From an uncultured Gemmatimonadota bacterium (lineage in GTDB: Bacteria > Blakebacterota > Blakebacteria > Blakebacterales > Blakebacteraceae): 64,000 nucleotides of DNA. The position numbers and the translations under genes are program-made. Below the pieces are notes generated by a model that did no database searches, had not been told where the DNA came from, and was given only the letters and a program-made list of their open reading frames with translations. The stretch lies in the NCBI GenBank assembly GCA_964576115.1, contig CAZNUA010000003.1, positions 15,116-79,115 of the forward strand. The letters run 5' to 3'. Shown piece by piece: positions 9,664-47,123 of the stretch (its first letter is position 1; each line of letters begins with the position of its first letter).

Positions 9664-9702
9664 ACCCGCCGCCGCCCTTGACAAATCAAGCGTACCCTGT
9701 AA

Positions 9703-11348: not shown

Positions 11349-11356
11349 ATAAAGAA

Positions 11357-11380
11357 AGGGGCGCCCCAAGGGGCGCCCCT
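11357..11380. terminator. GC-rich hairpin AGGGGCGCCCC-AA-GGGGCGCCCCT; rho-independent terminator for the minus-strand lipoprotein gene and a stem-loop after the CPBP gene
   Basis: 11-bp perfect stem. On the minus-strand transcript it is followed by a UUUCUUUAUU tract. Sits between convergent genes. Confidence 0.6.
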
Positions 11381-11403
11381 GCGCTTGAGGACCTCCAGAG
11401 ACC

Positions 11404-23101: not shown

Positions 23102-23262
23102 ACTCCCTACTTTCTAGGTACACCGCTTCGTACGTGCGGTAACGTATCGAATGCGAGCGCCATTGCGAAACGGTGTACGAAGGTGAGACCGCGTCGAACC
23201 GGGTGGTGACCGGAGCGTCTCCAGACCTGTGCCCCGCCCCCCCATTCCCGAGGAGTCCCCCG

Positions 23263-24825: not shown

Positions 24826-24965
24826 GAGGCTCCTGCACCGGAGGTATCACACCCGGGGCAGGAAAGAGCATGGCGGCCGCAAGGCGGTCGGACATACTGT
24901 GGAGTACGGGGGCTCGACGAGAGCCCCTGTTTTTTCTGTGCAACATTCGCAGGGGCCAGGACGCC

Positions 24966-33350: not shown

Positions 33351-34658
33351 ATGATAGGTAAAGAGATAGAGGGTCTGAAGGATTTCCTGCAGGCTCTCGA
33401 AGACACAGAGAATCCCGACGCGGCTCTGCAGTGTGTCGTGACGAGTGCCGCCCGACTGCTCGCGGCCGACAAGGTTTCGGTCGTCGCCAAGTCGGAGCAG
33501 GGTCTGCTCCAGGTCCGTGCAATGCACTGGCCGGGCCGGGATCCCATGGCCGGGGTCGCCGGTCAGGTTCTCGCTTCGGGTGAGTCGCTCCTGGTGACCG
33601 ATGTCGCCGGTGATCCCCGTCTGGCGGCTGTCCGTTCCCAGCACTACCGCACCCCCTCCTTTTTGAGCGTGCCGATCATCTCCGCCGGACAGCCGGTCGC
33701 GGTGTTGAATATCACTGACCGGCTGGACAGTGAGCCCTTCACGGCCGAGCACCTGAAACTGGCCGAACTGATCGCCCGGGTGGCCGGTTTCTCGCTCGAG
33801 CGGCACCGCTTCCTCGACTCGATCAAAAAGCTTCAGCGGGAATCTGTGACCGACGCTCTGACCGGCCTGGGGAACCGGCGTCACTTTGAGCAGCGGCTGT
33901 CGAGCGAACTCTCGCGGGCCCGCCGGTTCGGACATCCCTTGAGCCTCATCATTCTCGATATCGACGATTTCAAGACCTACAACGATACCCACGGACATCC
34001 CGCCGGCGACCAGGCCCTGCGGGCCCTGGCGACGGTTCTGCAGGAGAACGTACGTACGATCGACGATGTGGTCCGCTACGGCGGCGAGGAATTCGCCATC
34101 CTCCTGCCCCAGACCCCGATCGATCTGGCGACCGTCGTGGCCGAGCGTGTCCGCGCCGCCACCAGCCACATTCAGATCGAGAGCGTGCCCGGTCCGGGAA
34201 GCGGCAGTCTCACCGTTTCTCTGGGCGTCGCCTCCTATCCGCGCGATGCCCGCGATGATGCCGAACTCCTCAATCATGCCGATATCGCTCTCTATCTGGC
34301 CAAAGCCGACGGAAAAGACAGGATCGTCGTTTTCGAACCGCTGACCGAAGACGAACGTCGCAACAGCCGCCGGATCCCCATCCGGCTCAATACCCTCCTC
34401 AAGGGCAAGGACAACGCGGGAACATTCGAAGAACAGACCATCCTTCGAAACATTTCGGCTACGGGAGCGTTCTTCCCTCACCGCCGGGTGCTGCAGCCCT
34501 CCACCTGGCTGAGTCTGAGCATCCACAATCCCTTCACCGAACCGGACGGGAGCCCGGTGATCCTGGAAGTGGACGGCCAGCTCATCCGCCAGGAAGAGAA
34601 CGAAGAGGGACTTTTCGCGGCGGTAGTCTTCAACCGGGAATTGGCCCGCTTCTCCTGA
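33351..34658 (+). CDS. GAF-GGDEF-PilZ diguanylate cyclase
   Basis: GAF N-terminus. An intact GGEEF with an RxxD I-site (RTIDD) five residues upstream. C-terminal PilZ motifs RRNSRR and NISATGAF. Confidence 0.8.
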   Translation: MIGKEIEGLKDFLQALEDTENPDAALQCVVTSAARLLAADKVSVVAKSEQGLLQVRAMHWPGRDPMAGVAGQVLASGESLLVTDVAGDPRLAAVRSQHYRTPSFLSVPIISAGQPVAVLNITDRLDSEPFTAEHLKLAELIARVAGFSLERHRFLDSIKKLQRESVTDALTGLGNRRHFEQRLSSELSRARRFGHPLSLIILDIDDFKTYNDTHGHPAGDQALRALATVLQENVRTIDDVVRYGGEEFAILLPQTPIDLATVVAERVRAATSHIQIESVPGPGSGSLTVSLGVASYPRDARDDAELLNHADIALYLAKADGKDRIVVFEPLTEDERRNSRRIPIRLNTLLKGKDNAGTFEEQTILRNISATGAFFPHRRVLQPSTWLSLSIHNPFTEPDGSPVILEVDGQLIRQEENEEGLFAAVVFNRELARFS

Positions 34659-34685: not shown

Positions 34686-35882
34686 ATGACGGCAGCTGAG
34701 GCAGAGAATGGGTATCGGAGCGTCCGTCTGAAAAGCGGCCACGATCGTCGCGTGCGGCGCGGTCATCCGTGGATTTTCTCCAACGAACTCGAGGATGGTC
34801 CGGCCGGATACGCCGTCGGCGAGCTGGTGCAGGTCCATTCCGGCAAGGGCCAATTCCTCGGGATCGGTTATATCAACCCTCATTCGCTCATCGCGGTCCG
34901 GCTCCTGCGCCGGGATCCGGGACCGATCGATACCGCCTTTCTCGACGCCCGTCTTGAGCGAGCCATTGTCCTGCGCGATCGACTCTACCCGGCTGCCGAT
35001 GCGGTCCGGCTCGTCAACTCCGAAGGCGACGGTCTGCCCGGTCTCATCCTCGATCGCTACGGTCCGGCCCTGGTCCTGCAGGTTACCACCGCGGGCATGC
35101 AGGCTCTCCTGCCCCTGCTGATTCCCCGGCTCGAGAGCCGGCTCGAGCCGGCCTGCATCGTAGCGCGCAACGATCTTCCGGTCCGCCGCCTCGAAGGGTT
35201 GACAGAAGAGATCGCGGTGCTGGCCGGCGAGCCCGATCCCGACCTGGAGGTGACCTACGAGGGGCTCCGTCTCGCGGTGGATCTGACCGGGGGGCAGAAG
35301 ACCGGTCTGTATCTCGATCAGCGCGACAACCAGCGGCATTTTCTGACCCCTCCCCTCGGCGATGTCCTCGACTGTTACTGCTATCAGGGGACCTGGGCGC
35401 TGCTGGCCTTGCGGGCCGGAGCGGATCGGGCGGTGGGACTGGACACGTCGGCCGAGGGGATTGCCGCCGCGGCCCGGCATGCCGATCGGAACGGGCTCGC
35501 CGACCGGGTCGACTTCGAACGCCGCGATACGATCGAGGCTCTCAAGGCTTTCCGGAGTGCCGGCCGGAGCTTCGATACCGTCATTCTCGATCCGCCCGCT
35601 TTCGTCAAGAACCGCAAGCACCTCCGGGCGGGTCTGCGCGGCTATCTCGATCTGAACCGGAAGGGCTTCGATATCCTTCGGTCGGGCGGCACCCTCATCA
35701 CCTGTTCATGCTCCCACCATGTTTCTCCCGAGACCTTTACCGATACCGTCTCGCATGCCGCCTCACTGGCCGGACGGCACGTCCGCATCACGGGCCGCGG
35801 CGCCCAGAGTGCCGACCATGCGCCCCTGCTCACCGCCCCGGAAACGGCCTATCTGAAATGCCTCGCCCTGCAGGTGGAGTGA
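34686..35882 (+). CDS. rlmI: 23S rRNA m5C methyltransferase of the RlmI/RlmK type (PUA plus class I SAM MTase)
   Basis: PUA-like N-terminus (RRGHPWIFSNEL) and the SAM-MTase motif VLDCYCYQGTW...DPPAF. Confidence 0.75.
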   Translation: MTAAEAENGYRSVRLKSGHDRRVRRGHPWIFSNELEDGPAGYAVGELVQVHSGKGQFLGIGYINPHSLIAVRLLRRDPGPIDTAFLDARLERAIVLRDRLYPAADAVRLVNSEGDGLPGLILDRYGPALVLQVTTAGMQALLPLLIPRLESRLEPACIVARNDLPVRRLEGLTEEIAVLAGEPDPDLEVTYEGLRLAVDLTGGQKTGLYLDQRDNQRHFLTPPLGDVLDCYCYQGTWALLALRAGADRAVGLDTSAEGIAAAARHADRNGLADRVDFERRDTIEALKAFRSAGRSFDTVILDPPAFVKNRKHLRAGLRGYLDLNRKGFDILRSGGTLITCSCSHHVSPETFTDTVSHAASLAGRHVRITGRGAQSADHAPLLTAPETAYLKCLALQVE

Positions 35883-35887
35883 ATCGG

Positions 35888-36742
35888 ATGGCGGGTCTGG
35901 CCCTGGGCAGTCATGTATCGGTGGCCGGCGGTGTGTCCCGGTCTTTCGAGCGGGCCGAGTACTACGGGTGCGAGGTGATGCAGATCTTCGTCAAGAACAA
36001 CAACCGCTGGCGGAGCCCGCCTTTGCGCGATGAAGAGGTCGAACGCTTCGCCGCCGAACGCAAACGCACCGGTATATGGCCTGTCCTGGCCCATAATACA
36101 TATCTGGTGAATCTGGCCAGCGCCGATTCCGCCATCCGGGAACGCTCGGTTGCCTGCACGGTAGATGAACTCGAGCGCTGCCATCGGCTCGGTCTGCCCT
36201 GGCTCGTCCTCCACCCCGGAGCCCACGGGGGGGCCGGGCCGGCCAGGGGGATCGAGCGGATCGCCGCCGCCGTCGGCCGTGTCCTCGACCGCACGCCACA
36301 CATCACGACCCGCCTCCTCTTTGAAACCACCGCCGGAGCGGGAACTCTGCTCGGCGCCACCGCGGCCGAGCTGGCTGCCATTCTCGCGGCCGTCGATGCC
36401 GATGAACGTACCGGTGTCTGCCTGGACACCTGCCATATTTTTGCGGCCGGTTACGAGCTGCGTTCGGCCGACGGGTACGAAGCGACCTGGACGGAGTTCG
36501 ACACCCGGATCGGTCTGGAGCGGATCCCGGCCCTGCATCTCAATGACAGTCTCAAGCCCCGCGGTTCGCGGCGGGATCGCCATGCGCATATCGGCGAAGG
36601 GGAGATCGGCGAGGCGGGATTTGAGCGGCTCATGACCGATCCGCGCCTGCGGACGATCCCCAAGATACTCGAGACTCCGAAAGAGGGTGACGCAGATCTG
36701 CGCAATCTGGCTCGACTACGGCGCCTGGCCGGAATCGAATGA
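35888..36742 (+). CDS. nfo: Endonuclease IV (AP endonuclease family 2)
   Basis: HVSVAGG...HNTYLVNLAS...LVLHPGAH...CLDTCHIFAAGY, the Nfo TIM-barrel zinc-site pattern. Start at the ATG at 35888. Confidence 0.85.
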   Translation: MAGLALGSHVSVAGGVSRSFERAEYYGCEVMQIFVKNNNRWRSPPLRDEEVERFAAERKRTGIWPVLAHNTYLVNLASADSAIRERSVACTVDELERCHRLGLPWLVLHPGAHGGAGPARGIERIAAAVGRVLDRTPHITTRLLFETTAGAGTLLGATAAELAAILAAVDADERTGVCLDTCHIFAAGYELRSADGYEATWTEFDTRIGLERIPALHLNDSLKPRGSRRDRHAHIGEGEIGEAGFERLMTDPRLRTIPKILETPKEGDADLRNLARLRRLAGIE

Positions 36743-36935
36743 AGAGGGCGGGGTGAAACTGCCGCGTGTTTCGAATGGTCACGGAATCTGTGTAACCTCC
36801 TGCAGAGAAATACCGTACTTTCCGTATGTCCGCTTTCGGGACGCCTTTATGCGCAGGCGGACATGACCGATTGCGCCGGGAGAGGGTGGTGGTAGCGGTC
36901 GGCCCGGCCGCTCCGGCAAAGTGAGCCGGATACGG

Positions 36936-36953
36936 GCTTGGCACGGTTTCTGC
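36936..36953 (+). promoter_or_regulatory. Candidate sigma-54 promoter CTTGGCACGGTTTCTGCT (GG-N10-GC) ~110 bp upstream of the efflux operon
   Basis: One mismatch (CTGCT vs TTGCW) to the sigma-54 consensus TGGCACG-N4-TTGCW (-24/-12), oriented toward the HlyD-family gene. A sigma-54 activator is encoded at the end of the same gene block. Confidence 0.45.
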
Positions 36954-37061
36954 TCTTTCTCATCATCACCAGGGTAGTACATGACGACAGGGATCTTTCC
37001 GATCGTGTGAAGGATCTCGAGGCTGAGAAAGAGACACGCAACGTGGGGGAGGTCGGGTTCA

Positions 37062-38312
37062 GTGGATATTCCGCGAGAGCCGAAGAGTAAAAAATCGAAA
37101 TACATCTGGATAACGCTGGCCGTTATTGCGGTGGTGGCGATCACAATCGGTCTGCGCAGTCTCGAACCGGCGGCTCCGACAGTCGATGGAGCCCTGATCT
37201 GGACCGATATCGTCAAGCGGGGGCCGATGCTGCGCCAGGTACGGGGCAGCGGGAACCTGCGCCCGAAGAACATTCTCCATGTGTCCGCCGTTACCGGCGG
37301 GAAGGTCGAGGATGTTCTGGTCGAACCGGGGGCCGAAGTCGAGCCCGATGACGTTCTGCTCATCATGAGCAATCCCGATGTGGAACTGAACGCGCTGGAA
37401 GCCAACCAGCAGCTGGTGGCCGCCGAGGCCAACCTGGCCAATCTGCGCGGCACCCTGGAGACCAACCGGCTGAACCAGGAAGCCAGCGTCGAACGCACCC
37501 GCAACCAGCTCCGTGACGCCCAGCGCACGCTCGAATCCTACAATGCCGCCCGTGAAGAGGTGGCCCGCAACGACCTGGAGCGCACCCAGGACGAGGTCAA
37601 TTTCCTCACCACCCAGCTCGAGATCGAGCAGCGCGCCCTCGATATCATGAATGAGGGCAATCAGCGCACCATTGCGGCCGAGGAATCTCGGGTGGCCAGG
37701 CTGCGCGAGCTGGCCGAGTTCCAGCAGAGCCGGGTCGAGGCCCTGCACGTGCGGGCCGGATCGGAGGGGATCGTACGCGAACTCAATCCCGAAAAGGGCG
37801 AGTGGGTCGGAACGGGACAGGAGCTGGGTATCATCATCCAGCCCGGCGAGCTCGAAGCGGTGGTCAACATCCCCGAAGTACAGGCCAAAGACGTCATTAT
37901 CGGGCAGGAAGCCACGGTGGACACCCGCACCCAGGGGGGACGTGAAATCCCCGGGCGGGTGACCCGTATCGATCCGGCCGCCACAGGCGGACTGGTACCG
38001 GTCGACATCGAGATCCTGGGTGAACTGCCCGATGGCGTGCGGGCCGACATCAGCATCGAGGGTATCATCACCATCGAGCGGCTCGACAACGTCCTCTACA
38101 TGAGCCGACCCACGGTGGGCCAGGCCAACAGCCGGGTGGGGATGTTCAAGCTGGTGGACGACGGGCAGTACGCCGTGCGCATCACGGTTGAAATCGGACA
38201 GACGTCAGTAAACAGTATCGAGATCCGCGGCGGGCTCGAGGAGGACGACGAAGTCATCCTCTCCGATATGGCCCGCTGGGACGAGTACGATCGTGTGAGG
38301 ATCAGACGATAG
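37062..38312 (+). CDS. Efflux periplasmic adaptor protein (HlyD/MacA-like membrane fusion protein)
   Basis: N-terminal TM anchor, a biotinyl/lipoyl-like hairpin (VEPDDVLLIMSNPDVE), a long coiled coil and a beta-barrel C-terminus. Confidence 0.8.
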   Translation: MDIPREPKSKKSKYIWITLAVIAVVAITIGLRSLEPAAPTVDGALIWTDIVKRGPMLRQVRGSGNLRPKNILHVSAVTGGKVEDVLVEPGAEVEPDDVLLIMSNPDVELNALEANQQLVAAEANLANLRGTLETNRLNQEASVERTRNQLRDAQRTLESYNAAREEVARNDLERTQDEVNFLTTQLEIEQRALDIMNEGNQRTIAAEESRVARLRELAEFQQSRVEALHVRAGSEGIVRELNPEKGEWVGTGQELGIIIQPGELEAVVNIPEVQAKDVIIGQEATVDTRTQGGREIPGRVTRIDPAATGGLVPVDIEILGELPDGVRADISIEGIITIERLDNVLYMSRPTVGQANSRVGMFKLVDDGQYAVRITVEIGQTSVNSIEIRGGLEEDDEVILSDMARWDEYDRVRIRR

Positions 38313-38347
38313 ATCCTTGGTAAAGAGGAAAACGGGAAAGGAACATC

Positions 38348-39085
38348 ATGGACAACGTTTCGAAACAGCCTCTGATCCGACTGGAGGGCGTCAGCAAGGT
38401 CTTCTACACCGAAGAAGTGGAGACCCACGCCCTGAACAACATCAACCTGGAAATTCAGTCGGGTGAGTACGTCGCCGTGGCGGGCCCCTCGGGGTGCGGC
38501 AAGACGACCATGCTCTCCATTCTCGGACTGCTCGACACGCCGACCGAGGGAACCTACCTTCTCGACGGCGATCCGGTGCAGAACCTGACCCTGGCCCAGC
38601 GGGCGCGAATCCGCAACCAGGCCATCGGCTTCATCTTCCAGGCCTACAACCTGATCGGCGACCTGACCGTCTTCGAGAACGTCGAGCTGCCGCTGACCTA
38701 CCGCGGCATGCCCTCGGCCGAGCGCAAGAAGCGGGTCCAGGAATCGCTCGAGCGGGTCGGCATGGCTCATCGCATGAAGCACTACCCCTCGCAGCTCTCC
38801 GGAGGTCAGCAGCAGCGGGTCGCGGTAGCCCGGGCGATCGCCGGCCGGCCGCTGATTCTGCTCGCCGACGAGCCGACCGGTAACCTCGACTCGACCAACG
38901 GTGAGGCCGTCATGGATCTGCTCGACGAGCTGCACCGTGAGGGCGCCACCATCTGCATGGTGACGCACGACCCGCGCTACGCGCACCACGCCAAGCGTTC
39001 GGTCAACCTCTTCGACGGTCAGATCGTGGAAGAGAAGAACGGGGAAAAGGTCACGCAGCTCGAAGAGAGCGGCTTCGACATCTGA
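38348..39085 (+). CDS. ABC transporter ATP-binding protein (MacB/LolD-type), paralog 1
   Basis: Walker [10 protein letters not shown], signature [14 protein letters not shown], Walker [13 protein letters not shown] and H-loop VTHD. Confidence 0.85.
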
Positions 39086-39244
39086 GCCACGCTTTCCTCT
39101 TCCCGTACCTGCCTCCGTTGGGGATATTTCCTCCCGACCGGAGTGAGCAGGTCGCCTGATCCGTTGCCGGCTGGAGCGGTGCGGTGGGTGTCCCGCCGCA
39201 CCGTTTCTTTCACCGGCATATAACCACCGGCAAGGCTGTCAGCC

Positions 39245-39919
39245 ATGATTACCGTCAGAGACCTCGAGAAGTACTACCAGACCGGTCCGACCAAGACGTT
39301 CGTCCTGCGCCGGATCAACCTCGATGTGGGCGAGGGCGATTTCATCACGGTGATGGGACCGTCGGGATCGGGGAAGACGACCCTGTTGAGTATCCTCGGT
39401 ATGCTCGACGGAGAATGGAACGGAGAGTACTACTTCGTGGGGCACGAAGTTCACCGCATGAAACCGAAGGACCGCGCGGCTCTGAACAAACAGTACATCG
39501 GTTTCGTGTTCCAGCAATACCACCTGCTCGACAGTCTGACCGTCTACGAAAACCTCGAGATTCCGCTCTCCTACAGGAACATCAAGCACGCCAAGCGGGC
39601 GGGGATGGTGGCCGATATCCTCGATCGCTTCCAGATCGTCGGCAAGAAGGACCTCTATCCCAGCCAGCTCTCCGGCGGCCAGCAGCAGCTGGTAGCCGTG
39701 GCCCGGGCCGTGATCGCCTCGCCGAAGCTGATCCTGGCCGACGAACCGACCGGGAACCTGCATTCGCGGCAGGGTAAAGAAGTCATGGACCTCCTGAAGC
39801 GGCTCAACGAAGACGGCACGACGATCATACAGGTGACCCACAACGAGAAGTGGGCCGCATACGGGAACCGGATCATCAACCTCTTCGATGGCTGGATCGT
39901 CGACGAGCCGCGTGGCTGA
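39245..39919 (+). CDS. ABC transporter ATP-binding protein (MacB/LolD-type), paralog 2
   Basis: Walker [36 protein letters not shown] and VTHN. Roughly 45% identical to paralog 1 by eye. Confidence 0.85.
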   Translation: MITVRDLEKYYQTGPTKTFVLRRINLDVGEGDFITVMGPSGSGKTTLLSILGMLDGEWNGEYYFVGHEVHRMKPKDRAALNKQYIGFVFQQYHLLDSLTVYENLEIPLSYRNIKHAKRAGMVADILDRFQIVGKKDLYPSQLSGGQQQLVAVARAVIASPKLILADEPTGNLHSRQGKEVMDLLKRLNEDGTTIIQVTHNEKWAAYGNRIINLFDGWIVDEPRG

Positions 39920-40302
39920 TCCCGACTGTTTCTGATTGCCTCCTTCCGGGCGGAGCTGCCTCGTTCCGTCCGTCACCGGGACGCCCCGTCCCGACAGCGG
40001 ACACTTCCAGCCTCCCGGGGATCGCGATCCTTTCCGTTCGGATGTCGTCCCCGGTGCATCCGCGGGGCGTGAGCCCGTTGGCATGCCCTTTGCGTTATCT
40101 CCGGTTCAGCTGTCGTGCTGCAGATTGACACGCACGAACCGGAAATCCCCACTGGCCGGCGAGTTCGAGGCCGGCGCGCGAACCCTCACGGGGTGAGGTT
40201 TCGTATTAGAGAAGAGCGATATGGCCCATTGCCGCATCGCGTTACAGACATCACATGCAGTGGGGGGAATTCCTCATGATCGGTGCAGTTGGTTATCAAG
40301 AA

Positions 40303-41949
40303 ATGATGAAGACGATGGCTGAAAAAATCAGACTCCTGCTTCTGGGAACGCTGCTCCTGGTGGCATTACCGGTCGGGCAGGAGCGGGCCGGGGCCCAGCA
40401 GGTCGGGGGTGACACAATGGCGCCAAGCCAGGGGATCTTCACCCGCGATCAGGCCGACCTGGTGCTGACTCTCGACCAGGCTGTCGACCTGTCACTCGAG
40501 AGATCGTTCACAGTGTATAACCTCGGGCAGCAGTACCTGCAGACAAACTACCTGGTCGAGAATGCACGCCGCCAGCTGCGGACCAGGATCAATTTCGATT
40601 CCACCCTGCCCGGGATCACCCAGATGATCACCCCCGACCTGATCAGCGACGGGATGGGAGGTCAGGAACTGATCTTCCTGCGTGACAGCCAGAGCTGGGT
40701 CTATTCCGAAATAAACATCGTCCAGCCGTTGATCACCAACGGCTGGCTGCAGCTCTCGACCGGCCTGGTCGGCTTCGATGTCTTCCGTGAACTGCCCAAC
40801 ATGAATGTCGAGTCCCGTTCAGTCCAGCCCTCGGTCGGGGTGCAGTTCAACCAGCCCCTTTTCCAGTACAACCAGGTCCGGGGAACCCTGCGGAGCGCCT
40901 CGCTGTCCTTCGAGAGCCTCGACCTGCGCTACACCGAGGACGAGCTGCGCACCATCAACGATGTCAGCCAGCAGTACTACAACCTCTATGCCCAGCAGGA
41001 GGCGGTCCGGCTGGCCGATGAGCGCTACCGGCAGAGCGAACGCAACTACCAGTCCGGGCAGCGGCGTCTGGAAGCCGGCCTTTTAGCCGAAACCGACGTG
41101 ATGCAGCTCAGCGTGACCCGCATGAACGACCTTGATGCACTCGAGACGGCCATGAACCAGCTCGAGCAGGCCCAGTTCGCTTTCAACCGGATGGTCGGAC
41201 TGCCCCTCGACCAGCAGGTCTGGGCCGAAGCCCGCCAGGAGTACGAACCGATCGCGGTGGATCTCGAGCGCGCCCTCGAGCTGGCCTTCCAGAACCGGAG
41301 CGACCTGCGGCGCTCCGAGATCAGCCGCGAACAGCTCGACCTGACCCTGCGCCAGACCCGGAGCGACGGGCGACCCGACCTGCAGCTCAACATCGGCTAC
41401 GATCTGACCGGAAACTCCTCTCTGACCGCTCTGCCGACCCAGAGCTGGTACACCCACCTGCAGGAATCGCTCGATCCCGAGAACCGCAGTCCCAACACCA
41501 ATATCTCGATGACTCTCTCGATCCCCCTCTTCGACTGGGGACGCAACCGCTCCATGGTCGAGCGCATCCGCTCCCAGATCCAGGTTGCCGAGCGGCAGAT
41601 CGAGGAGACCGAACAGGAACTGATCCGGACCGTGACCGACCGGGTGCGGGCGGTCGAAACCGCCATGCGCCGGCTCCAGATCCAGGAGGAGAACGTCCAG
41701 GTCGCGCAGACCTCTTTCGATTTCGCGGTGCGGCGGTTCGACCGGGGTGAGATGACCACCACCGAGCTGGCCCGGGCCCAGGACCAGCTCTCCCAGACCC
41801 TGAACAACCGTCTCAATGCCTGGATCTCATTCGAAATGGCCAAGGCCGACCTGAAAGAGATCACCCTCTGGGATTGGGAGACCAACACCTCGGCCCAGCG
41901 CCGGACCGCGCCGCCCGAGCCCTTCGGCTGGCGGCGCAACGGAGGATAG
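40303..41949 (+). CDS. TolC-family outer-membrane channel
   Basis: Signal peptide KIRLLLLGTLLLVALPVGQERAGAQ and duplicated TolC repeats. Confidence 0.75.
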   Translation: MMKTMAEKIRLLLLGTLLLVALPVGQERAGAQQVGGDTMAPSQGIFTRDQADLVLTLDQAVDLSLERSFTVYNLGQQYLQTNYLVENARRQLRTRINFDSTLPGITQMITPDLISDGMGGQELIFLRDSQSWVYSEINIVQPLITNGWLQLSTGLVGFDVFRELPNMNVESRSVQPSVGVQFNQPLFQYNQVRGTLRSASLSFESLDLRYTEDELRTINDVSQQYYNLYAQQEAVRLADERYRQSERNYQSGQRRLEAGLLAETDVMQLSVTRMNDLDALETAMNQLEQAQFAFNRMVGLPLDQQVWAEARQEYEPIAVDLERALELAFQNRSDLRRSEISREQLDLTLRQTRSDGRPDLQLNIGYDLTGNSSLTALPTQSWYTHLQESLDPENRSPNTNISMTLSIPLFDWGRNRSMVERIRSQIQVAERQIEETEQELIRTVTDRVRAVETAMRRLQIQEENVQVAQTSFDFAVRRFDRGEMTTTELARAQDQLSQTLNNRLNAWISFEMAKADLKEITLWDWETNTSAQRRTAPPEPFGWRRNGG

Positions 41950-41959
41950 GAGACAGAAC

Positions 41960-44398
41960 ATGGATGCCATCCGCCAGGACGTGCGCTTCGGTCTTCGCTC
42001 GCTCATCCGCCGACCCGATGTCACTCTTCTCGCCGTCCTGGCGCTCGGCCTGGGGATCGGGGCCTCGACCTCGATCTTCAGCGTCGTCAACAGCGTCCTG
42101 CTGCGCCCCCTGCCGTACGATTCGCCCGAGCGTCTGGTGACCGTATCCGAGCCCGGCGATGGTCAGGACCAGGCCGCGACTTCACCTCTCAATTATCTCG
42201 ACTGGCGCGACCAATCCACCACCCTGGAGTACCTGGCGGGCCACCGCGACCACCATTTCAACATCCTCACCGGAAACGAGCCGGAGCGGATCCGGGGTAC
42301 CAGCGTCTCGCCCTGTTTTTTCGATGTCTTCGGGATCGAGGCGGCCCGGGGACGGGTCTTCCATGAGGGGGAAGGCGAGGCCGAGGCCGTGGCGGTTCTG
42401 CGGCACCGCTTCTGGGTCACCCGTTTCGGGGCCGATCCCGACATCATCGGCTCCGAGATCATCCTCAACGACCGTACCCACACCATCATCGGGGTCATGC
42501 CGGAATCCTTCACCTATCCGGCCCGCACCAATCTCTGGGTCCGCTCCTATTCCTACGGCGTGCCCGAACCCCCCTTCAATTTCGGCGTGGAGCTGAACGA
42601 GGTGCGGGGTCTGGGGTACTTCGATACCGTGGGGCGCCTGCGCCCGGGCGTCACCGTGGCCGAGGCCGATGCCGAAATGCGGGCCATCGGGGAACGGCTT
42701 TTTACCGAATATGCCGAAAATACCTGTAATAACTCTGCCGGGATCACCCCCCTGCGGGAAATCCTGGTGGGAGATGTGCGCAGCCCCCTGATCGTGCTGG
42801 CCGTGGCGGTCGGTCTGGTCCTGCTCATTGCCTGCGCCAATATCGCCAATCTCCTGCTGGCCAAGGCGGTCGGGCGGGGCCGGGAAATGGCTTTACGCAG
42901 CGCCCTGGGCGCCGGACGGCGCCGACTGCTCCAGCACCTGCTCGTCGAGAGTCTGGTTCTGGCCCTGCTGGGCGGGGGCACCGGTCTGCTGATCGCCCTG
43001 TGGGGAGTCGATCTGCTGACCGGTCTGGGATCCGCTGTCATGGTGCAGCTCACAGGAGTTCAGATCGATAATGCCACCCTTCTCTTCAGCGTGGCTGTCT
43101 CGGTCGGTACCGGAGTGCTCTTCGGGATTCTGCCTGCCCTGACCGCGTCACGGGTCGATCTGCAGTCGGCTCTGCGGGAAGGAGCCATGCAGTTCAGCGA
43201 GGGGCGGAAAAGCCGCCGGCTGCGTCAGGGTCTGGTGGCGGTCGAGGTGGCGCTCGCCCTGATGCTCCTGCTCGGTTCGGCGCTGATGCTCAAGAGCCTG
43301 ATGCGGCTGCAGGCTGTCGATGCCGGTTTCGATCCCGAGGGAGTGGCGGTGGCCCGGGCGCAGCTGCCGACCAGCCGTTACCCGGAAGAGGAGCAGATCA
43401 ATCGTTTCTACGCCGATCTTCTGGAGCGGGCCCGGAACCTGCCGGGAGTCGATCGGGCCGGTCTGGTCATGAGTCTGCCCCTGACCGGTTCGGCGGCATC
43501 GCTCACCTTCACGATCGAAGGTCAACCTCTTCCCGAACCGGGGTACGAACCCGTTTCGCTCTATCAGTGCATCAGCGACGGGTACTTCGAGACAATGCGG
43601 ATTCCCCTGCTGCAGGGGCGGTCCTTTTCCGAACAGGACAACAGAACCGATGCGCCACCGGTGGTTATCATCAACCAGGCCTTCGCCGACGAATTCTACC
43701 CCGAGACCGATCCGCTCGGCCGCCGGCTCTCCTGGGGCGATCCCGCCGACGAGACCAGCTGGCACACGATCGTGGGGATCGTGACCGACACCCATCATTT
43801 CCGACTCGATAGAGGCCCCGAGCCCGAGGCCTTTATTCCCTTCGCGCAGGATCCCTGGAACAGCGCTGCGGTCGTCGCCCGTACCTCGGGCGATCCCCAC
43901 GCCCTGCTGCCCCTGCTGCGGGGAGCGGTGCGCGAGATTGACAGCGACCAGCCGGTCTACGGTCTGATGACGATGCCGGAACGGCTCGGCTCGACCCTGG
44001 CCGACCGACGCTTCGTCATCCTCCTGCTCGGTCTCTTCGCCTCTGTTGCGGCACTGCTTGCAGCGGTGGGCATCTACGGTGTTATCTCGTATACGATCGG
44101 CCAGCGGGTGCGCGAGCTGGGCATCAGGATTACTCTGGGTGCCGGCCGGGGCGAGTTGATTGGAATGGTCCTGAGCCAGGGTATGAGACCGGTCGGGTGG
44201 GGCATCGGAACCGGACTGGTTCTGGCGGCCCTGCTGACAGGACAGCTCAGGAGTCTGCTCTTCAATGTCCGTCCGCTCGACATCACCAGCTTCGCCGGGA
44301 TAACGCTGCTCGTGGCCTTCATAGCGCTGCTGGCGACCGCGGTGCCGGCCTGGCGGACCACGCAGATCGCTCCGACCGAGGCGCTGCGGCACGAATAG
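41960..44398 (+). CDS. MacB-like ABC permease with duplicated MacB-PCD plus FtsX domains (ADOP-type, 812 aa)
   Basis: N-terminal TM segment, then a periplasmic domain. The first FtsX is at ~270-400 and the second at the C-terminus (ISYTIGQRVRELGIRITLGAG...). Confidence 0.8.
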   Translation: MDAIRQDVRFGLRSLIRRPDVTLLAVLALGLGIGASTSIFSVVNSVLLRPLPYDSPERLVTVSEPGDGQDQAATSPLNYLDWRDQSTTLEYLAGHRDHHFNILTGNEPERIRGTSVSPCFFDVFGIEAARGRVFHEGEGEAEAVAVLRHRFWVTRFGADPDIIGSEIILNDRTHTIIGVMPESFTYPARTNLWVRSYSYGVPEPPFNFGVELNEVRGLGYFDTVGRLRPGVTVAEADAEMRAIGERLFTEYAENTCNNSAGITPLREILVGDVRSPLIVLAVAVGLVLLIACANIANLLLAKAVGRGREMALRSALGAGRRRLLQHLLVESLVLALLGGGTGLLIALWGVDLLTGLGSAVMVQLTGVQIDNATLLFSVAVSVGTGVLFGILPALTASRVDLQSALREGAMQFSEGRKSRRLRQGLVAVEVALALMLLLGSALMLKSLMRLQAVDAGFDPEGVAVARAQLPTSRYPEEEQINRFYADLLERARNLPGVDRAGLVMSLPLTGSAASLTFTIEGQPLPEPGYEPVSLYQCISDGYFETMRIPLLQGRSFSEQDNRTDAPPVVIINQAFADEFYPETDPLGRRLSWGDPADETSWHTIVGIVTDTHHFRLDRGPEPEAFIPFAQDPWNSAAVVARTSGDPHALLPLLRGAVREIDSDQPVYGLMTMPERLGSTLADRRFVILLLGLFASVAALLAAVGIYGVISYTIGQRVRELGIRITLGAGRGELIGMVLSQGMRPVGWGIGTGLVLAALLTGQLRSLLFNVRPLDITSFAGITLLVAFIALLATAVPAWRTTQIAPTEALRHE

Positions 44399-44410
44399 GA
44401 AGAGGTCCGC

Positions 44411-45790
44411 GTGGAGAGCGGAAGAGATACTCCCCAGGTACTGATAGCGGACGATCAGCCCGACGTTCTGGAAGCTCTCAAGCTCCTGCTCAAAGCCGAA
44501 GGTTTCTCGACCGAGACGGCGATGTCCCCCGGCGACGTTCTCGCCCGGGCGGGGGAAAGAGCTTTCGACGTGGTTCTGATGGATCTCAATTACACCCGCG
44601 ACACGACGTCGGGACATGAGGGATTCGATCTGCTGACCCGGCTCCACGACGACGATCCCACCCTGCCGGTGATCGTCATGACCGCCTGGAGCAGTGTCGA
44701 GGGAGCGGTCGAGGCGATGCGCCGGGGCGCCCGCGATTACGTCGAGAAACCCTGGGAGAACGCCCGCCTGCTGGCAACCCTGAAGACCCAGATCGAACTG
44801 GGCCGGGCCCTGCGCCGGTCCCGGCGACTGGAGGATGAGAACCGGCTTCTGCGCCGCGAGGGCATCCCCGCCCTGGTCAGCGAATCGCGGCCGATGCAGG
44901 AGGTCGTTCAACTGGCGGCGCGTATCGCGCCTTCCGATGCCAATATCCTGGTAACGGGCGAGCACGGGACCGGCAAGGAAGTCATGGCCCGATGGATCCA
45001 CGCCGCCAGCAACCGGGCCGACCGGCCGCTGATCACCCTCAACGCCGGGGCCCTGCCCGAAGGGCTGGTCGAGTCCGAACTCTTCGGTCACGTCAAAGGT
45101 GCTTTCACCGACGCCCGCACCGACCGGGCCGGCTGCTTCGAACTGGCCGATACCGGTACTCTCTTCCTCGATGAAATCGCCACTGTCCCCCTTGCTCAGC
45201 AGGCCAAACTGCTGCGGGTACTCGAAACCGGAGAAATCAGGCGGGTGGGATCGGAGAAGATGCGGCTGGTCGACGTGCGGGTGATCTCGGCCACCAACGT
45301 CGATCCGGGTGAAGCGATCACCGCCGGCACTTTTCGGGAAGATCTTCTTTATCGACTCAATACCGTCGAACTGCACCTGCCTCCCCTGCGGGAACGACGC
45401 GAAGACATCGGGATTCTGGCCGAAGGCTTCCTGGCTGAACTGAGCGGGCACTACCAGCGGTCGATTACCGGATTCTCCCCCGGGGCGCTCGACCTGATGC
45501 TCGGGCATTGGTGGCCGGGCAACGTGCGCGAACTCCGCCACGCCGTGGAGCGGGCCGTGCTCATGGCCCGGACCGACCGCATCGAAGCCGAGGATCTGAG
45601 CCTCAGCAGATATGGCGAGGGCACTCCCGAACTCGAACGCATGACCCTGGATGAAGTCGAAGAGTTTCTCATTACCCGCGCCCTCGAACGGACCGGGGAG
45701 AACGTGAGCCGGGCGGCTGAAGAGCTGGGTTTGAGCCGCAGCGCTCTCTACCGCAGGCTTCAGCGCTTCGGTCTGCAGGAACCGGAGTGA
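44411..45790 (+). CDS. Sigma-54-dependent response regulator (NtrC family: REC, AAA+ and Fis-type HTH)
   Basis: Receiver DVVLMDLNYTRD. AAA+ Walker A GEHGTGKE, the GAFTDA motif, ESELFGH and the sigma-54 interaction region. C-terminal HTH. GTG start. Confidence 0.85.
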   Translation: MESGRDTPQVLIADDQPDVLEALKLLLKAEGFSTETAMSPGDVLARAGERAFDVVLMDLNYTRDTTSGHEGFDLLTRLHDDDPTLPVIVMTAWSSVEGAVEAMRRGARDYVEKPWENARLLATLKTQIELGRALRRSRRLEDENRLLRREGIPALVSESRPMQEVVQLAARIAPSDANILVTGEHGTGKEVMARWIHAASNRADRPLITLNAGALPEGLVESELFGHVKGAFTDARTDRAGCFELADTGTLFLDEIATVPLAQQAKLLRVLETGEIRRVGSEKMRLVDVRVISATNVDPGEAITAGTFREDLLYRLNTVELHLPPLRERREDIGILAEGFLAELSGHYQRSITGFSPGALDLMLGHWWPGNVRELRHAVERAVLMARTDRIEAEDLSLSRYGEGTPELERMTLDEVEEFLITRALERTGENVSRAAEELGLSRSALYRRLQRFGLQEPE

Positions 45791-45815
45791 ATCCGCCCCC
45801 CGTCGGAATCGGCCC

Positions 45816-47123
45816 GTGACGCACGAGCAGCGGGCCATGGGCCTGGCTCTTCTGGCCGGGTTGCCGGCTGTGGCGACGGCTCTGGTCCTGCTCTGGAGCG
45901 GCGGCTACGCCGCCAAACTGCAATGGACCCTGACGGTCGTCATTCTCACCTTCTGGCTCGGTATCGCCGCTCTGCTGCGTGAGTATGTCGTCCGCCCCCT
46001 GCAGATGCTTTCGAATCTGCTCGGGGCCTTGCGCGAAGGCGATTACTCGATCCGGGCGCGGGGCGCCGGGACCGACGAAGCCCTCGAACTGGCTCTACAC
46101 GAAGCCAACACCCTGGCCGGAACCCTGCGCGAGCAGCGGCTCGGCGCGGTCGAGGCCACCGCTCTGCTCGACGAAGTCATGGCCGAGATCGATGTGGCGG
46201 TGTTCGCCTTCGATGACGAAAACCGGCTGCAGTTCGTCAACCGGGCCGGCGAGCGGTTGCTGGCGGCGCCGGCCGGAGGCCTGATCGGCGCCACGGCGGC
46301 CGAGACCGGTCTCGACTTCCTGCTCGAAGGTCCTTCCCATCGGCTGGTCGACGCCGCTTTCGGGATCGGGCCGGGACGCTGGGAGGTACACCGGAGCAGT
46401 TTCCGACAGGAGGGTTTCCGGCATTCCCTGCTAGTGATCTCCGATCTGAGCCGGACTCTGCGGGAGGAGGAACGCCAGGCCTGGAAGCGCCTGGTCGGGG
46501 TTCTGCGCCACGAGATCAACAATTCTCTGGCTCCGATCAAGTCGCTGGCCGCCAGCCTGACCGATCTGCTCGCCCGCCGGCCGCCGCCGGTCGACCGTGA
46601 AGCGGATCTCTCGACCGGACTCGACATCATCGGCGAGCGAGCCGAGGCTCTGAGCCGCTTCATGGCCTCCTACACCCGACTCACCCAGCTTCCTGAACCG
46701 GAGCTACAACCGGTCGAGGTGACCGAGCTGGTGCGCCGGGCGGTCGAGCTGGAGACGCGCCGGGAGGTCGGGATCGAGTCGGGACCGGCGATCACCATTT
46801 CAGCCGACTCCGATCAGCTCTCCCAGCTTCTCATCAATCTGCTGCGCAATGCCGTGGACGCGGTTGGCGAAACCGGCGGCCGGGTGTGGGTCACCTGGCA
46901 GACGACTGACGCCTACCTCAACCTGCGGGTTGTGGATGAGGGGCTGGGGGTGAGCGGAACGGCCAATCTCTTCGTGCCGTTTTACACCACCAAACCCGAC
47001 GGTTCGGGCATCGGCCTGGCCCTGAGCCGGCAGATCGCCGAAGCCCACGGCGGCACCCTGGTGTTGCAGAACCGAACCGGTGCGCCGGGCTGTGAGGCGA
47101 TCCTGAGGCTGCCGCTCACCTGA
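45816..47123 (+). CDS. Sensor histidine kinase (NtrB-like; two TM helices, PAS-like, HisKA, HATPase_c)
   Basis: H-box LRHEINNSLAPI, N-box LLINLLRNAVDA, and G-boxes DEGLGVS and GSGIGLALSRQIAEAHGG. Confidence 0.8.
   Translation: MTHEQRAMGLALLAGLPAVATALVLLWSGGYAAKLQWTLTVVILTFWLGIAALLREYVVRPLQMLSNLLGALREGDYSIRARGAGTDEALELALHEANTLAGTLREQRLGAVEATALLDEVMAEIDVAVFAFDDENRLQFVNRAGERLLAAPAGGLIGATAAETGLDFLLEGPSHRLVDAAFGIGPGRWEVHRSSFRQEGFRHSLLVISDLSRTLREEERQAWKRLVGVLRHEINNSLAPIKSLAASLTDLLARRPPPVDREADLSTGLDIIGERAEALSRFMASYTRLTQLPEPELQPVEVTELVRRAVELETRREVGIESGPAITISADSDQLSQLLINLLRNAVDAVGETGGRVWVTWQTTDAYLNLRVVDEGLGVSGTANLFVPFYTTKPDGSGIGLALSRQIAEAHGGTLVLQNRTGAPGCEAILRLPLT

Follow-up and report, generated by a model that had tools for sequence, protein, structure and literature searches.

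A predicted tripartite type VII ABC exporter of the ADOP class with two deeply conserved ATPase genes and an adjoining sigma-54 two-component system

In the window, meaning the whole 64-kb stretch of DNA that was analysed, a cluster of plus-strand genes begins with a periplasmic adaptor (membrane fusion protein) of 416 aa with an N-terminal membrane anchor (positions 37062-38312; Pfam HlyD_3 and HlyD_D23). The anchor is visible in the translation as the hydrophobic segment KYIWITLAVIAVVAITIG, and the protein scored 90 bits against TIGR01730, slightly below the cutoff of 94.9. Two ABC ATPase genes follow (both ABC_tran): ATP1, a canonical MacB/LolD-type ATPase of 245 aa (38348-39085), and ATP2, of 224 aa, with a non-canonical D-loop His and signature-tail Leu (39245-39919). 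Downstream lie a TolC-like outer-membrane channel (40255-41949), matched by Pfam OEP in two stretches and by TIGR01844 at 123 bits, below the cutoff of 225, and an 812-aa permease encoded as one chain (41960-44398). The channel contains a signal-peptide-like segment, LLLLGTLLLVALPVG, and its true start is probably at 40276-40306, ahead of the signal peptide. The original prediction had placed these five genes correctly and read them as a fully split type VII (MacB-like) system with adaptor, TolC-like channel and pseudo-dimeric permease, which domain and fold assignments supported. It ended the system too early, at 44398: directly downstream, and in our reading part of the system, are an NtrC-type sigma-54-dependent response regulator (44411-45790; Response_reg, Sigma54_activat and HTH_8) and a histidine kinase with two transmembrane (TM) helices (45816-47123; HATPase_c).

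The permease matched TIGR03434 (ADOP) with 925 bits against a cutoff of 622. Pfam placed two MacB_PCD and two FtsX domains along the chain, and an AlphaFold2 model (pLDDT 85, pTM 0.78) comprised 8 TM helices, two periplasmic domains and two coupling helices (residues 307-315 and 717-725). Both analyses confirmed the internal duplication that had been claimed, with two MacB-PCD plus FtsX halves and not a single FtsX domain. The top full-length fold match in the PDB was Escherichia coli YbbP (9GE6_A, E 4.5e-18), with MacB halves next. In the model, one polypeptide with 8 TM helices stands in for the two chains of a MacB dimer. Two different coupling helices are conserved in 168/168 ADOPs, with the motifs R..E.A[IV]R.ALGA in the N-half and RT.EIGIRMALGA in the C-half.

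The best NCBIfam matches of both ATP1 and ATP2 were MacB/LolD/DarD-type ATPases, none over its curated cutoff. Pairwise alignment bore out the view of two separate, divergent genes, giving 47% identity across 224 aa without a gap. The Walker A Lys, Q-loop Gln, LSGGQ, Walker B Asp-Glu and H-loop His are kept in both proteins. The earlier description of the motifs as intact therefore holds for the catalytic motifs but not for two positions of ATP2, where His replaces Asp in the D-loop (TGNLH) and Leu replaces Arg after the signature (LSGGQQQL); unlike ATP2, MacB and Spr0694 have Asp and Arg there. The signature-tail Arg and D-loop Asp are invariant among ATP1 orthologues (45/45), and the D-loop His is found in 85/85 ATP2 orthologues, with Leu (81) or Met (4) at the Arg position. 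In all, 23 alignment columns are conserved inside each family and differ between the two; they are concentrated in the stretch following the Q-loop (the coupling-helix groove), in that preceding the signature, and at the D- and H-loops. Compared with three relatives, at dS of at least 1, dN/dS was 0.05 for ATP1 and 0.04-0.09 for ATP2. Both ATPases are under strong purifying selection, and neither is a pseudogene. ATP1 orthologues are 66-91% identical across phyla, with other ATPases dropping sharply to 55% or less, and ATP2 orthologues are 69-98% identical. Judged by these sequences, ATP1 and ATP2 are two separate ancient lineages.

Conservation of the ATPase pair beside ADOP permeases, which the original prediction had marked for survey, extended across phyla. 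Gemmatimonadota and Acidobacteriota yielded 65 ATP2 loci that were informative, about 63 of them independent; in 52, ATP1 lay upstream of ATP2 on the same strand, either adjacent (36) or with 1-3 ADOP genes between (16). A metagenome scan centred on ATP1 returned the same clusters, and a 39%-GC organism of a low-GC lineage had the same gene set and layout at an ATPase identity of only 55%. An adaptor orthologue was found upstream of ATP1 in nearly all loci, and in 35 loci a regulator orthologue was the gene directly after ATP2, while in 20 it came after ADOP genes. We conclude that the conserved core is adaptor-ATP1 / ATP2-regulator-kinase in Gemmatimonadota, Acidobacteriota and the low-GC lineage. 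Only the clade to which the window belongs has the channel gene within the cluster. ADOP genes are slotted into the core in numbers from 0 to 8 or more, and ATP2 is found once per cluster regardless of permease number; six Bryobacterales loci carry a second ATP1-like copy. ADOP paralogues share a median identity of about 38%. Conservation is hub-like: the ATPases (66-91%) are more conserved than the ADOPs (29-54%) and the adaptor (35-71%).

Departures from this core were found. The close relatives L001 and L002 consist of adaptor-ATP1-ATP2-channel without ADOP, regulator or kinase, both ATPases being kept after loss of the permease in cis; another, L165, has the ADOP but no regulators. Its absence from close relatives shows that the permease, although present here as first described, is not a fixed component of the module. 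ADOP operons occurred with an ATP1-like gene alone (L174) or an ATP2-like gene alone (L171/L172), adaptor-ATP2-regulator loci without ATP1 (L042, L061, L075), and ATP2 as a stand-alone gene (L003, L008); where a locus holds one ATPase type, the partner gene may sit elsewhere in the genome. Alternating ATPase-ADOP-ATPase-ADOP orders were seen in L116, L118 and L119. In L109, L118 and L168 it is the adaptor that follows regulator and kinase, and ATP2 closes the permease operon at its far end, so the ATP2-regulator linkage is not universal, whereas the co-occurrence of ATP1 and ATP2 is.

The 319-nt gap before the adaptor gene contains a sigma-54-type -24/-12 promoter-like site, TGGCACGGTTTCTGCT (36939-36954, plus strand; 11/12 consensus positions), preceded by a candidate enhancer (activator-binding) patch with the motifs CTTTCCGT, TGTCCGCT and CGGGACGCC (36818-36863, plus strand). 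A second promoter-like site, TGGCATGCCCTTTGCG (40079-40094, plus strand; 10/12 positions), lies in the 335-nt gap upstream of the channel-permease-regulator genes, and a second candidate patch (39977-40037, plus strand) holds a CGGGACG-N3-CGTCCCG palindrome, AGCGGACA and CTTTCCGT. The three motifs of the first patch are common to both, each patch lying about 80-110 nt upstream of its own -24/-12 site. The few shared 8-9-mers are near chance, and it is their clustering that faintly suggests activator-binding enhancers. The first promoter-like site was absent in relatives L001, L005 and L006, and the second in L001, L006 and L165, in which the same gap is about 35-65 nt. The regulator pair is missing in L001 and L165 and was not seen in L005; the contig of L006 ends too early to judge. 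Perfect sigma-54 sites were found upstream of the stand-alone ATP2 genes, and cross-locus support for such promoters is moderate.

The 159-bp gap between ATP1 and ATP2 folds at -74 kcal/mol (z = -4.0), and a terminator scan matched its hairpin, a terminator- or attenuator-like structure with a 16-bp stem, a 3-nt loop and then a T-rich run (39173-39207, plus strand). A possible regulatory element had been proposed in this gap, and similar hairpins recur in other lineages: GC-rich perfect hairpins occupied 22/39 ATP1-ATP2 junctions against 10-15% at most other junctions (up to 28%), their sequence not being conserved. This junction is also the longest gap in the cluster, with a median of 193 nt, compared with 50 nt for adaptor-ATP1, 30 nt for ATP2-regulator and 28 nt for regulator-kinase. 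The sigma-54-like promoters at 36939 and 40079 and the terminator-like hairpin argue against the single operon first described and for two, possibly three, transcription units as the probable arrangement. The response regulator carries a GAFTDA variant in place of the GAFTGA loop. Hydropathy of the kinase peaks only at residues ~6-30 and 35-60; its TM helices are joined by a loop of ~5-7 residues, and it therefore has no periplasmic sensor domain. The distant kinase of L168 has the same two-TM topology.

Taken together, gene content and predicted domains indicate that the cluster encodes a real envelope-spanning ABC export pump, with a one-piece duplicated permease and two deeply conserved ATPase genes. 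We tentatively propose, as one joint reading, that it specifies an ADOP-class tripartite exporter of type VII (MacB-like), controlled by a sigma-54 two-component system of its own and driven by an ATP1-ATP2 heterodimer on one ADOP. A heterodimer is favoured because every ADOP has two distinct conserved coupling helices; most probably, one ATP1 and one ATP2 would each engage one of these non-equivalent helices. Such a motor would have one fully canonical ATP site and one lined by the His D-loop and Leu signature tail of ATP2. It would work by mechanotransmission, as MacB does: on ATP binding and hydrolysis the two periplasmic domains would move and so push periplasmic or outer-leaflet substrates through adaptor and channel. 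ATP1 and ATP2 could serve as a shared motor for many interchangeable ADOPs, including 'orphan' ones encoded elsewhere. The kinase may read the state of the transporter and, through the regulator, switch on the sigma-54 promoters before the adaptor-ATP1(-ATP2) and channel-permease-regulator units.

Several observations count against the heterodimer. To our knowledge, every solved type VII system (MacB, LolCDE, YbbAP, BceAB, FtsEX, HrtBA) has two copies of one ATPase. The single-ATPase ADOP operons, adaptor-ATP2 loci without ATP1 and stand-alone ATP2 genes weigh in the same direction, as do the absence from ATP1 of Walker B or H-loop degeneration complementary to ATP2 and a search for a natural ATP1-ATP2 fusion that found none. 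A long ATP1-ATP2 gap, often with a terminator-like hairpin, is unusual for 1:1 subunits. The GAFTDA variant and the moderate promoter support count against sigma-54 control.

Some of these points lend plausibility to two separate homodimeric motors, either able to dock on any ADOP, an alternative we consider possible but rather doubtful. The efflux pump would be powered by ATP1 pairs, whose gene shares a transcript with that of the adaptor. ATP2 pairs, transcribed together with regulator and kinase, would power a sensing or basal transporter complex that reports to the kinase, as in BceAB-BceS, or alternatively be active under other conditions. Homodimers are the rule in known type VII systems, both YbbAP (PMC12646458) and LolCDE (PMC8277102) using two copies of a single ATPase. 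The tight gaps on either side of the loose ATP1-ATP2 junction, the ADOP operons of both single-ATPase kinds, the adaptor-ATP2 loci lacking ATP1 and the alternating orders fit this alternative, as do the complete catalytic residues of ATP2, its linkage to the regulator-kinase pair even where its identity falls to 51% (L173) and a kinase without periplasmic sensor domain. Yet no ADOP column, cytoplasmic elements included, separated ATP1-following from ATP2-following permeases (the highest mutual information with the neighbouring ATPase, 0.54, equalled the 95th percentile of the permutation null), although the ATPases differ around the coupling-helix groove. Moreover, ATP2 is not universally linked to the regulator but is to ATP1, and in an ATP2 homodimer neither ATP site would escape the effect of its two non-canonical residues.

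It is improbable that these genes are neighbours without forming a single system, with adaptor and ATPases serving a permease elsewhere and ADOP-regulator-kinase an unrelated insertion. That block is separable, as the gene content of L001/L002 and L165 indicates, but dozens of loci in distant lineages combine the five gene families, in several different orders, the 64-kb window holds no FtsX-type permease besides the ADOP, and sigma-54-like promoters precede both units in the activator-bearing window and are absent in the relatives examined. Most improbable of all is an ordinary split MacB-type pump with a single working ATPase, the other gene being a duplicate that is redundant or in decay, in principle the simplest reading of two similar genes side by side, which is already contradicted by their 47% identity, orthologues of each at 66-98% identity across phyla, dN/dS of 0.04-0.09, intact catalytic motifs and invariant family-specific residues.

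The predicted exporter resembles E. coli MacAB-TolC in its adaptor, TolC-family channel, MacB-type periplasmic core with 4-TM FtsX unit and MacB/LolD-type ATPase. Sequence alignment with MacB covers the N-terminal half of the permease and fold alignment each half-sized unit of ~400 residues, both ATPases align to the MacB NBD, and by analogy mechanotransmission is likely shared. MacB, however, is an ATPase-permease fusion working as a homodimer, whereas the window cluster encodes two kinds of ATPase in separate genes, joins the permease halves in one 8-TM chain and includes a sigma-54 two-component system of its own. E. coli YbbAP(-TesA) (PDB 9GE6-9GE8; PMC12646458) likewise pairs a separate ATPase with a pseudo-dimeric type VII permease that is made as one chain and bears two periplasmic domains. 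Among full-length fold matches to the ADOP model YbbP ranks first, at 13% sequence identity, but it has 10 TM helices with TM5-6 as a linking pair and binds two copies of YbbA (PMC12646458), whereas the 8 TM helices of the ADOP are joined directly and two ATPase genes are present. YbbAP lacks adaptor and channel, and the window cluster lacks TesA. LolCDE, also of type VII, likewise has a split ATPase, and its permease halves, LolC and LolE, differ from each other. These halves are separate proteins, LolD is present in two copies (PMC8277102), and the system has no adaptor or channel, passing lipoproteins to LolA.

BceAB-BceRS modules of Firmicutes, which sense and detoxify antimicrobial peptides, share the genetic tie between a type VII transporter and a two-component system and a kinase with 2 TM helices and no extracellular sensor, and BceA is among the closest solved ATPases to those of the window. 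By this analogy, transporter-to-kinase signalling may be conjectured here. BceB differs in its 10 TM helices and one extracellular domain, the modules have one ATPase gene and no adaptor or channel, and their regulator is of the OmpR type, not a sigma-54 activator. OppD/OppF, EcfA/EcfA', TM287/288 and TmrAB are likewise paralogous NBD pairs kept together, one member with non-consensus dimer-interface residues. They belong to other ABC fold types, and the heterodimer is only proposed for the window; degeneracy in these pairs usually affects one subunit at its Walker B Glu or H-loop His, both of which ATP1 and ATP2 keep.

The ADOP family (TIGR03434), of which the window permease is a full-length member, is named for the absence of adjacent ATPase genes. 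Its name stands for 'acidobacterial duplicated orphan permease' (PMC3914696). Here and in most surveyed loci, by contrast, ADOPs share a cluster with an adaptor, two specific ATPases and a two-component system, and the recurrence of this gene set across at least two phyla suggests which motors drive this large 'orphan' family.

Gene and domain assignments placed five transporter genes on the + strand exactly where the original prediction had put a split, asymmetric MacB-like pump (37062-44398), and because they match there, that observation is confirmed. The genes encode a membrane-anchored HlyD-type adaptor (37062-38312; HlyD_3 and HlyD_D23), two separate ABC ATPases, ATP1 (38348-39085; 245 aa) and ATP2 (39245-39919; 224 aa), an OEP/TolC-family channel (40255-41949) and an 812-aa permease (41960-44398). 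The adaptor scored 90 bits against TIGR01730, slightly under the cutoff of 94.9. The channel, whose N-terminus is signal-peptide-like, matched Pfam OEP in two stretches (156 bits), and its scores for NCBIfam TolC subfamilies were below cutoffs. The predicted gene set was correct for these five genes, but left out an NtrC-type sigma-54 response regulator carrying a Sigma54_activat domain (44411-45790) and a histidine kinase with two TM helices (45816-47123); every gene from 37062 to 47123 lies on the + strand. Within the 64-kb window, no further FtsX-type permease and no close ATPase paralogue were found. Elsewhere in the window, another TolC-family (OEP) gene (23173-24825), which shares 26% identity with the cluster channel, adjoins, together with 24822-26410, an ECF sigma/zf-HC2 anti-sigma pair; it has no transporter gene as a neighbour.

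The permease matched the duplicated-permease family ADOP (TIGR03434) at 925.1 bits (cutoff 622.3) over profile positions 1-803 of 803. Its two MacB periplasmic core domain (MacB_PCD) and two FtsX stretches bear out the proposed internal duplication. An AlphaFold2 model built with 83 homologues (pLDDT 85, pTM 0.78) predicted for the N-terminal half an amphipathic helix, TM1, periplasmic domain 1 (59-264), TM2, a coupling helix (307-315), TM3 and TM4 and, beyond a short disordered linker joining the halves, TM5, periplasmic domain 2 (462-671), TM6, a second coupling helix (717-725), TM7, TM8 and a C-terminal helix. The ADOP permease is thus modelled as a direct 4+4 fusion with 8 TM helices. Each half has the make-up of a type VII ABC permease unit, in which 4 TM helices carry a large periplasmic domain inserted between TM1 and TM2. 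The best full-length match by Foldseek to a solved structure was E. coli YbbP (9GE6_A; E 4.5e-18; 13% identity), with half-length alignments to MacB, Spr0695, LolC/E and BceB ranking next; PDB sequence matches (MacB, Spr0695) covered only the N-terminal half. Neither the sequence nor the fold comparison with solved structures brought up an ADOP-type protein.

Acidobacteriota and Gemmatimonadota, two phyla abundant in soil, carry very large paralogous families of ADOP permeases. The family was originally described as orphan, with no adjacent ABC ATPase gene, and its members have been annotated as such since the late 2000s, with no known ATPase or function. Here, the permease has two ATPase genes on its own strand, 2-3.6 kb upstream of it, and in many other loci ATP1 or ATP2 is flanked directly by ADOP genes. 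The permease is an ADOP member by score, yet contradicts the feature behind the family name.

The original prediction held the two ATPase genes to be divergent, and a gapless pairwise alignment gave 47% identity. More than 120 database clusters matched ATP2 at 75-98% identity, and a scan of one genome per species recovered 80 ATP2 loci (69-86% identity). Among these, 60 were labelled Gemmatimonadota or Acidobacteriota MAGs, and the others carried lower-rank or unclassified labels, including one Limnocylindrales; the nearest named relatives were uncultured Gemmatimonadota and a MAG labelled Zixiibacteriota. In the ATP2 loci, the ATP1 orthologues had 73-91% identity. A separate metagenome scan centred on ATP1 gave orthologues with identities of 66% or more; identity then fell sharply, other MacB-like ATPases not exceeding 55%. 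Sequence comparison thus indicates that ATP1 and ATP2 are two old lineages, each conserved separately. Against three close relatives, dN/dS was 0.05 for ATP1 and 0.04-0.09 for ATP2 (adaptor and channel, 0.13-0.29), synonymous sites being nearly saturated. Given these low values and the conserved orthologues, neither ATPase is a pseudogene, as the original prediction required.

To the level of single residues, the two lineages differ in a fixed manner. An alignment of 45 ATP1 and 85 ATP2 sequences contained 72 columns conserved and identical in both families, and 23 conserved within each family but different between them. ATP1 invariably carries LSGGQQQR and TGNLD (Arg and Asp in 45/45), and MacB and Spr0694 also have Arg and Asp at these signature-tail and D-loop positions; together with the MacB NBD, MJ0796, BceA and LolD, Spr0694 is among the closest solved relatives of both ATPases. 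ATP2 invariably carries LSGGQQQ[L/M] (81 L, 4 M) and TGxLH, with the D-loop His in 85/85, and more distant ATP2-like proteins (51-55% identity) retain Leu/Met and His. Both ATPases retain an intact Walker B Glu and H-loop His. Further family-specific columns lie after the Q-loop (NLIGD vs HLLD), before the signature, and around Walker A and the H-loop. The two lineages can be told apart by simple sequence signatures, that of ATP2 being LSGGQQQ[LM]/TGxLH. An apparent exception, the ATP1 of comparison locus L034 with ATP2 motifs, was rejected as an extraction artefact: the two genes (9032-10663) share one reading frame, and a single stop codon separates them in an otherwise open spacer. ATP1 and ATP2 of the window are also in frame with each other, with a second stop in the spacer, and the shared frame is probably due to chance. 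ATP1-like ATPases with 46-52% identity to ATP2 were also observed alone among unrelated genes (L175 8342-9016; L177 10001-10954). The L177 gene neighbours SusD and a sulfatase, suggesting Bacteroidota, so that an "orphan ATPase" counterpart of the orphan permeases may extend to that phylum. Bacteroidota, too, are reported to have ADOP clusters (PMC3914696).

The arrangement of the cluster was surveyed by tblastn mapping of the window proteins onto 84 ATP2 loci (∼82 independent ones, since L001/L002 and L003/L004 are apparently the same contigs from two sources). ATP1 was immediately upstream of ATP2 in 36 loci and upstream with 1-3 ADOP genes in between in 16. Nineteen loci were uninformative, because of a contig end or an ADOP array reaching the edge; in 3 the adaptor immediately preceded ATP2 without ATP1, and in 10 the available upstream sequence lacked ATP1. 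The ATPase pair thus recurs with ADOP permeases, ATP1 lying upstream of ATP2 in 52/65 informative loci. Downstream of ATP2, the sigma-54 regulator was the next gene in 35 loci; in 20, ADOP genes came first. Clusters contained from 0 to 8 or more ADOP genes (e.g., L073, L025, L054), a single ATP2 and mostly a single ATP1. The ATP1-centred scan recovered the same clusters in several gene orders, including adaptor-ATP1-ADOPn and adaptor-ATP1-ATP2, also L118, and adaptor-ATP2-ADOP-ATP1-ADOP (L119). The same gene set was found at only 55% ATPase identity in a distant 39%-GC organism (L168), where kinase and regulator are divergent from an adaptor, an ATP1-like gene (Arg/Asp), two ADOP-like genes and an ATP2-like gene (Leu/His); its kinase has two TM helices and a very short loop. 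These results provide good support for a conserved two-ATPase module. Two paralogous NBD genes are kept together with one permease family, with exceptions: ADOP operons with an ATP1-like gene only (L174; complete genome CP031763.1) or an ATP2-like gene only (L171/L172).

Additional components were observed in some clusters. In six Bryobacterales-type loci (L027, L030, L041, L045, L049 and L077), a third ATPase, ATP1-like (∼63-74% to ATP1), lies just after the kinase gene; in L027 (13503-14213) the next gene encodes an anti-sigma-like zf-HC2 protein instead of a permease. A response regulator with receiver and SpoIIE (PP2C phosphatase) domains lies between ATP2 and the downstream ADOP array in a Candidatus Acidiferrales locus (L048 10837-12126), an extra signalling component that the window does not have. 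Short receiver-domain matches occupy comparable positions in the acidobacterial loci L025, L035, L039, L044, L047, L054, L066, L076, L082 and L084.

Identity across loci was 66-91% for the ATPases, 53-69% for the regulator, 45-61% for the kinase, 35-71% for the adaptor and 29-54% for ADOPs (median ∼38% among paralogues). That the ATPases are best conserved and the ADOPs least fits ATPases having to serve many permeases. Comparison with close relatives showed the permease to be a separable part of the cluster. The cluster is flanked upstream by GGDEF, methyltransferase and AP-endonuclease-like genes and downstream by DUF1232, Smr, ECF sigma, anti-sigma and YbjQ genes, and these flanks are syntenic with relatives in three different states. 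L001/L002 have adaptor-ATP1-ATP2-channel followed by DUF1232, with neither ADOP nor regulators; L165 has ATP2-channel-ADOP followed by DUF1232, without regulators; the window and the independent assemblies L166/L167 have the full gene set. Both ATPases are under strong constraint in the permease-less relatives, so that their partners there are presumably permeases encoded at other sites. Only within the window's own clade did the cluster include the channel gene. Of the flanking genes, the one at 33351-34658 (three genes upstream of the cluster and syntenic in L001 and L002) encodes a GAF-GGDEF-PilZ protein, a diguanylate cyclase that also contains a c-di-GMP-binding domain. The PUA-methyltransferase (34686-35882) and AP_endonuc_2 (xylose-isomerase-like; 35708-36742) genes overlap by 175 nt as mechanical ORFs; the latter protein has 298 aa in relatives, so that translation here probably begins downstream of 35708.

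Two sigma-54-type -24/-12 matches on the + strand suggested how the cluster may be controlled: TGGCACGGTTTCTGCT (36939-36954) in the large gap before the adaptor, and TGGCATGCCCTTTGCG (40079-40094) in that before the channel. No such sites were found in the relatives L001, L005, L006 and L165. The regulator pair is absent in L001 and L165 and from the 10 kb examined in L005, and the L006 contig ends too soon to judge; the ATP2-channel gap is ∼35-65 nt in L001, L006 and L165 vs 335 nt in the window. Gain or loss of the sigma-54 promoters seems to have gone along with that of the activator. Across all loci, 34% of adaptor upstream regions scored at least 9 of 12 vs 6% of controls, a moderate enrichment that is supportive rather than decisive, and perfect sites were located 220 nt upstream of stand-alone ATP2 genes. 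Patches of common short motifs 80-110 nt upstream of both window promoters could conceivably be activator sites. GAFTGA is the canonical sigma-54 contact loop, and the GAFTDA of the regulator (residues ∼229-234) is a caveat to sigma-54 activation. GAFTDA is also present in the L034 orthologue (10691-12076), the only other one read. In the kinase, hydropathy and sequence placed the two TM helices ∼5-7 residues apart, followed by cytoplasmic domains, with no extracytoplasmic sensor domain; by analogy with Bce systems, such a kinase might read transporter activity.

The ATP1-ATP2 gap contains a 16-bp hairpin (39173-39207) followed by TTTCTTTC, 38 nt before the ATP2 start codon. GC-rich perfect hairpins of at least 7 bp (often 10-16 bp) were found at 22/39 ATP1-ATP2 junctions; most other junctions had them in 10-15% of cases, and ATP1-ADOP junctions in up to 28%. 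Among close relatives, the spacer showed no sequence conservation and only hairpin presence recurred. We read the hairpin as a putative partial terminator or processing/stability element that would set the ATP1:ATP2 ratio.

Do ATP1 and ATP2 form one motor or two? Fixed asymmetry of their ATP-site and dimer-interface motifs, their conserved pairing and the two different coupling helices in every ADOP all favour an ATP1-ATP2 heterodimer, which we put forward tentatively, rating it somewhat below an even chance. The predicted coupling helices at 307-315 and 717-725 bear an R..E...R...GA motif, and two distinct, highly conserved helices of this kind were present in 168/168 ADOPs (N-half consensus R..E.A[IV]R.ALGA; C-half, RT.EIGIRMALGA). 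At position E+2, the N-half has Ala in 138/168 ADOPs and the C-half Gly in all 168; use of this residue to assign an ATPase to each half was dropped, as it is reversed in the ATP1-only system L174. A division of ADOPs into ATP1-class and ATP2-class permeases was likewise rejected: whole-sequence clustering revealed no deep split between them, and no column separated ATP1-following from ATP2-following permeases by mutual information against a permutation null (top value 0.54, the 95th percentile of the null, with top columns outside cytoplasmic elements). Since all ADOPs have the same two helices and no ATPase-linked column, all would offer the same two non-equivalent docking sites. In ABC NBD structures, the post-Q-loop region lines the groove receiving the coupling helix, and each subunit turns its signature tail and D-loop towards the Walker A side of its partner. 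Because the docking sites are non-equivalent and the ATPases differ at the docking groove, a one-to-one match, in which ATP1 and ATP2 would each dock on one of the two coupling helices, is the simplest reading. Both ATP2 peculiarities would then fall in one ATP site of the mixed dimer.

Alternatively, ATP1 and ATP2 could each homodimerize, giving two separate motors, which we consider less probable than the heterodimer. To our knowledge, every characterized or solved type VII ABC system uses an ATPase homodimer; YbbAP contains two copies of one ATPase (PMC12646458), and LolCDE an ATPase homodimer (PMC8277102). Operons with a single ATPase type also speak against the heterodimer, as do stand-alone ATP2 genes and the three adaptor-ATP2 loci lacking ATP1, which continue with regulator and kinase. 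Nowhere in the cluster is the median gap longer than between ATP1 and ATP2 (193 nt), where a hairpin is frequent, and a Rosetta-stone search of 1.84 billion representatives found no natural ATP1-ATP2 or ATPase-ADOP fusion. Against separate motors, no position distinguishes ADOPs after ATP1 from those after ATP2. Two candidate fusions were discarded in the search: P0121, a database protein joining an ATP2-like ATPase to an ADOP N-terminus, looks like a frameshift artefact, and tandem-NBD proteins have two canonical (Arg/Asp) halves. The latter are proteins of 480-600 aa within the MacB-like ATPase clade (P0122, P0125, P0127, P0131, P0133, P0138).

Should the heterodimer be real, it would represent a new subunit arrangement in the type VII class, the first with a heterodimeric ATPase, its second ATP site lined by an invariant His D-loop, and a natural case of asymmetric ATP sites in mechanotransmission pumps. 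A broader and, in our estimation, unlikely proposal is that one heterodimer, one adaptor and one sigma-54 two-component system serve as a chassis for dozens of interchangeable ADOPs, encoded in-cluster or as "orphans". If true, this would be an export system of one motor and many permeases. The searchable literature contained almost nothing on ADOP, and nothing on ADOP ATPase partners or heterodimeric type VII ATPases. The locus and its relatives point to two ATPase lineages as candidate ADOP motors, and to a dedicated adaptor and sigma-54 two-component regulator, making an old annotation puzzle directly testable.

With an HlyD/MFP adaptor and a TolC-family outer-membrane factor encoded with the transporter, the cluster probably works like MacAB-TolC. 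In MacAB-TolC, however, the NBD is fused to the permease, which homodimerizes, whereas here the system is fully split, the permease is a one-chain pseudo-dimer without NBD, the separate ATPases are of two lineages, and a sigma-54 two-component system is encoded alongside. YbbP is also a one-chain pseudo-dimer, but has ten TM helices including a linking pair (PMC12646458), which the modelled ADOP permease with its 8 TM helices lacks. YbbAP uses a single kind of ATPase, in contrast to the two genes present here. Like Bce modules, the cluster links a type VII transporter to a kinase that has two TM helices but lacks an extracytoplasmic sensor domain. Bce-type kinases depend on their transporter for sensing. 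Bce modules differ in having a BceB-type 10-TM permease and an OmpR-type regulator, instead of an 8-TM ADOP and an NtrC-type regulator. Finally, paralogous NBD genes with fixed motif asymmetry, as in ATP1 and ATP2, are shared with heterodimeric ABC ATPase pairs.
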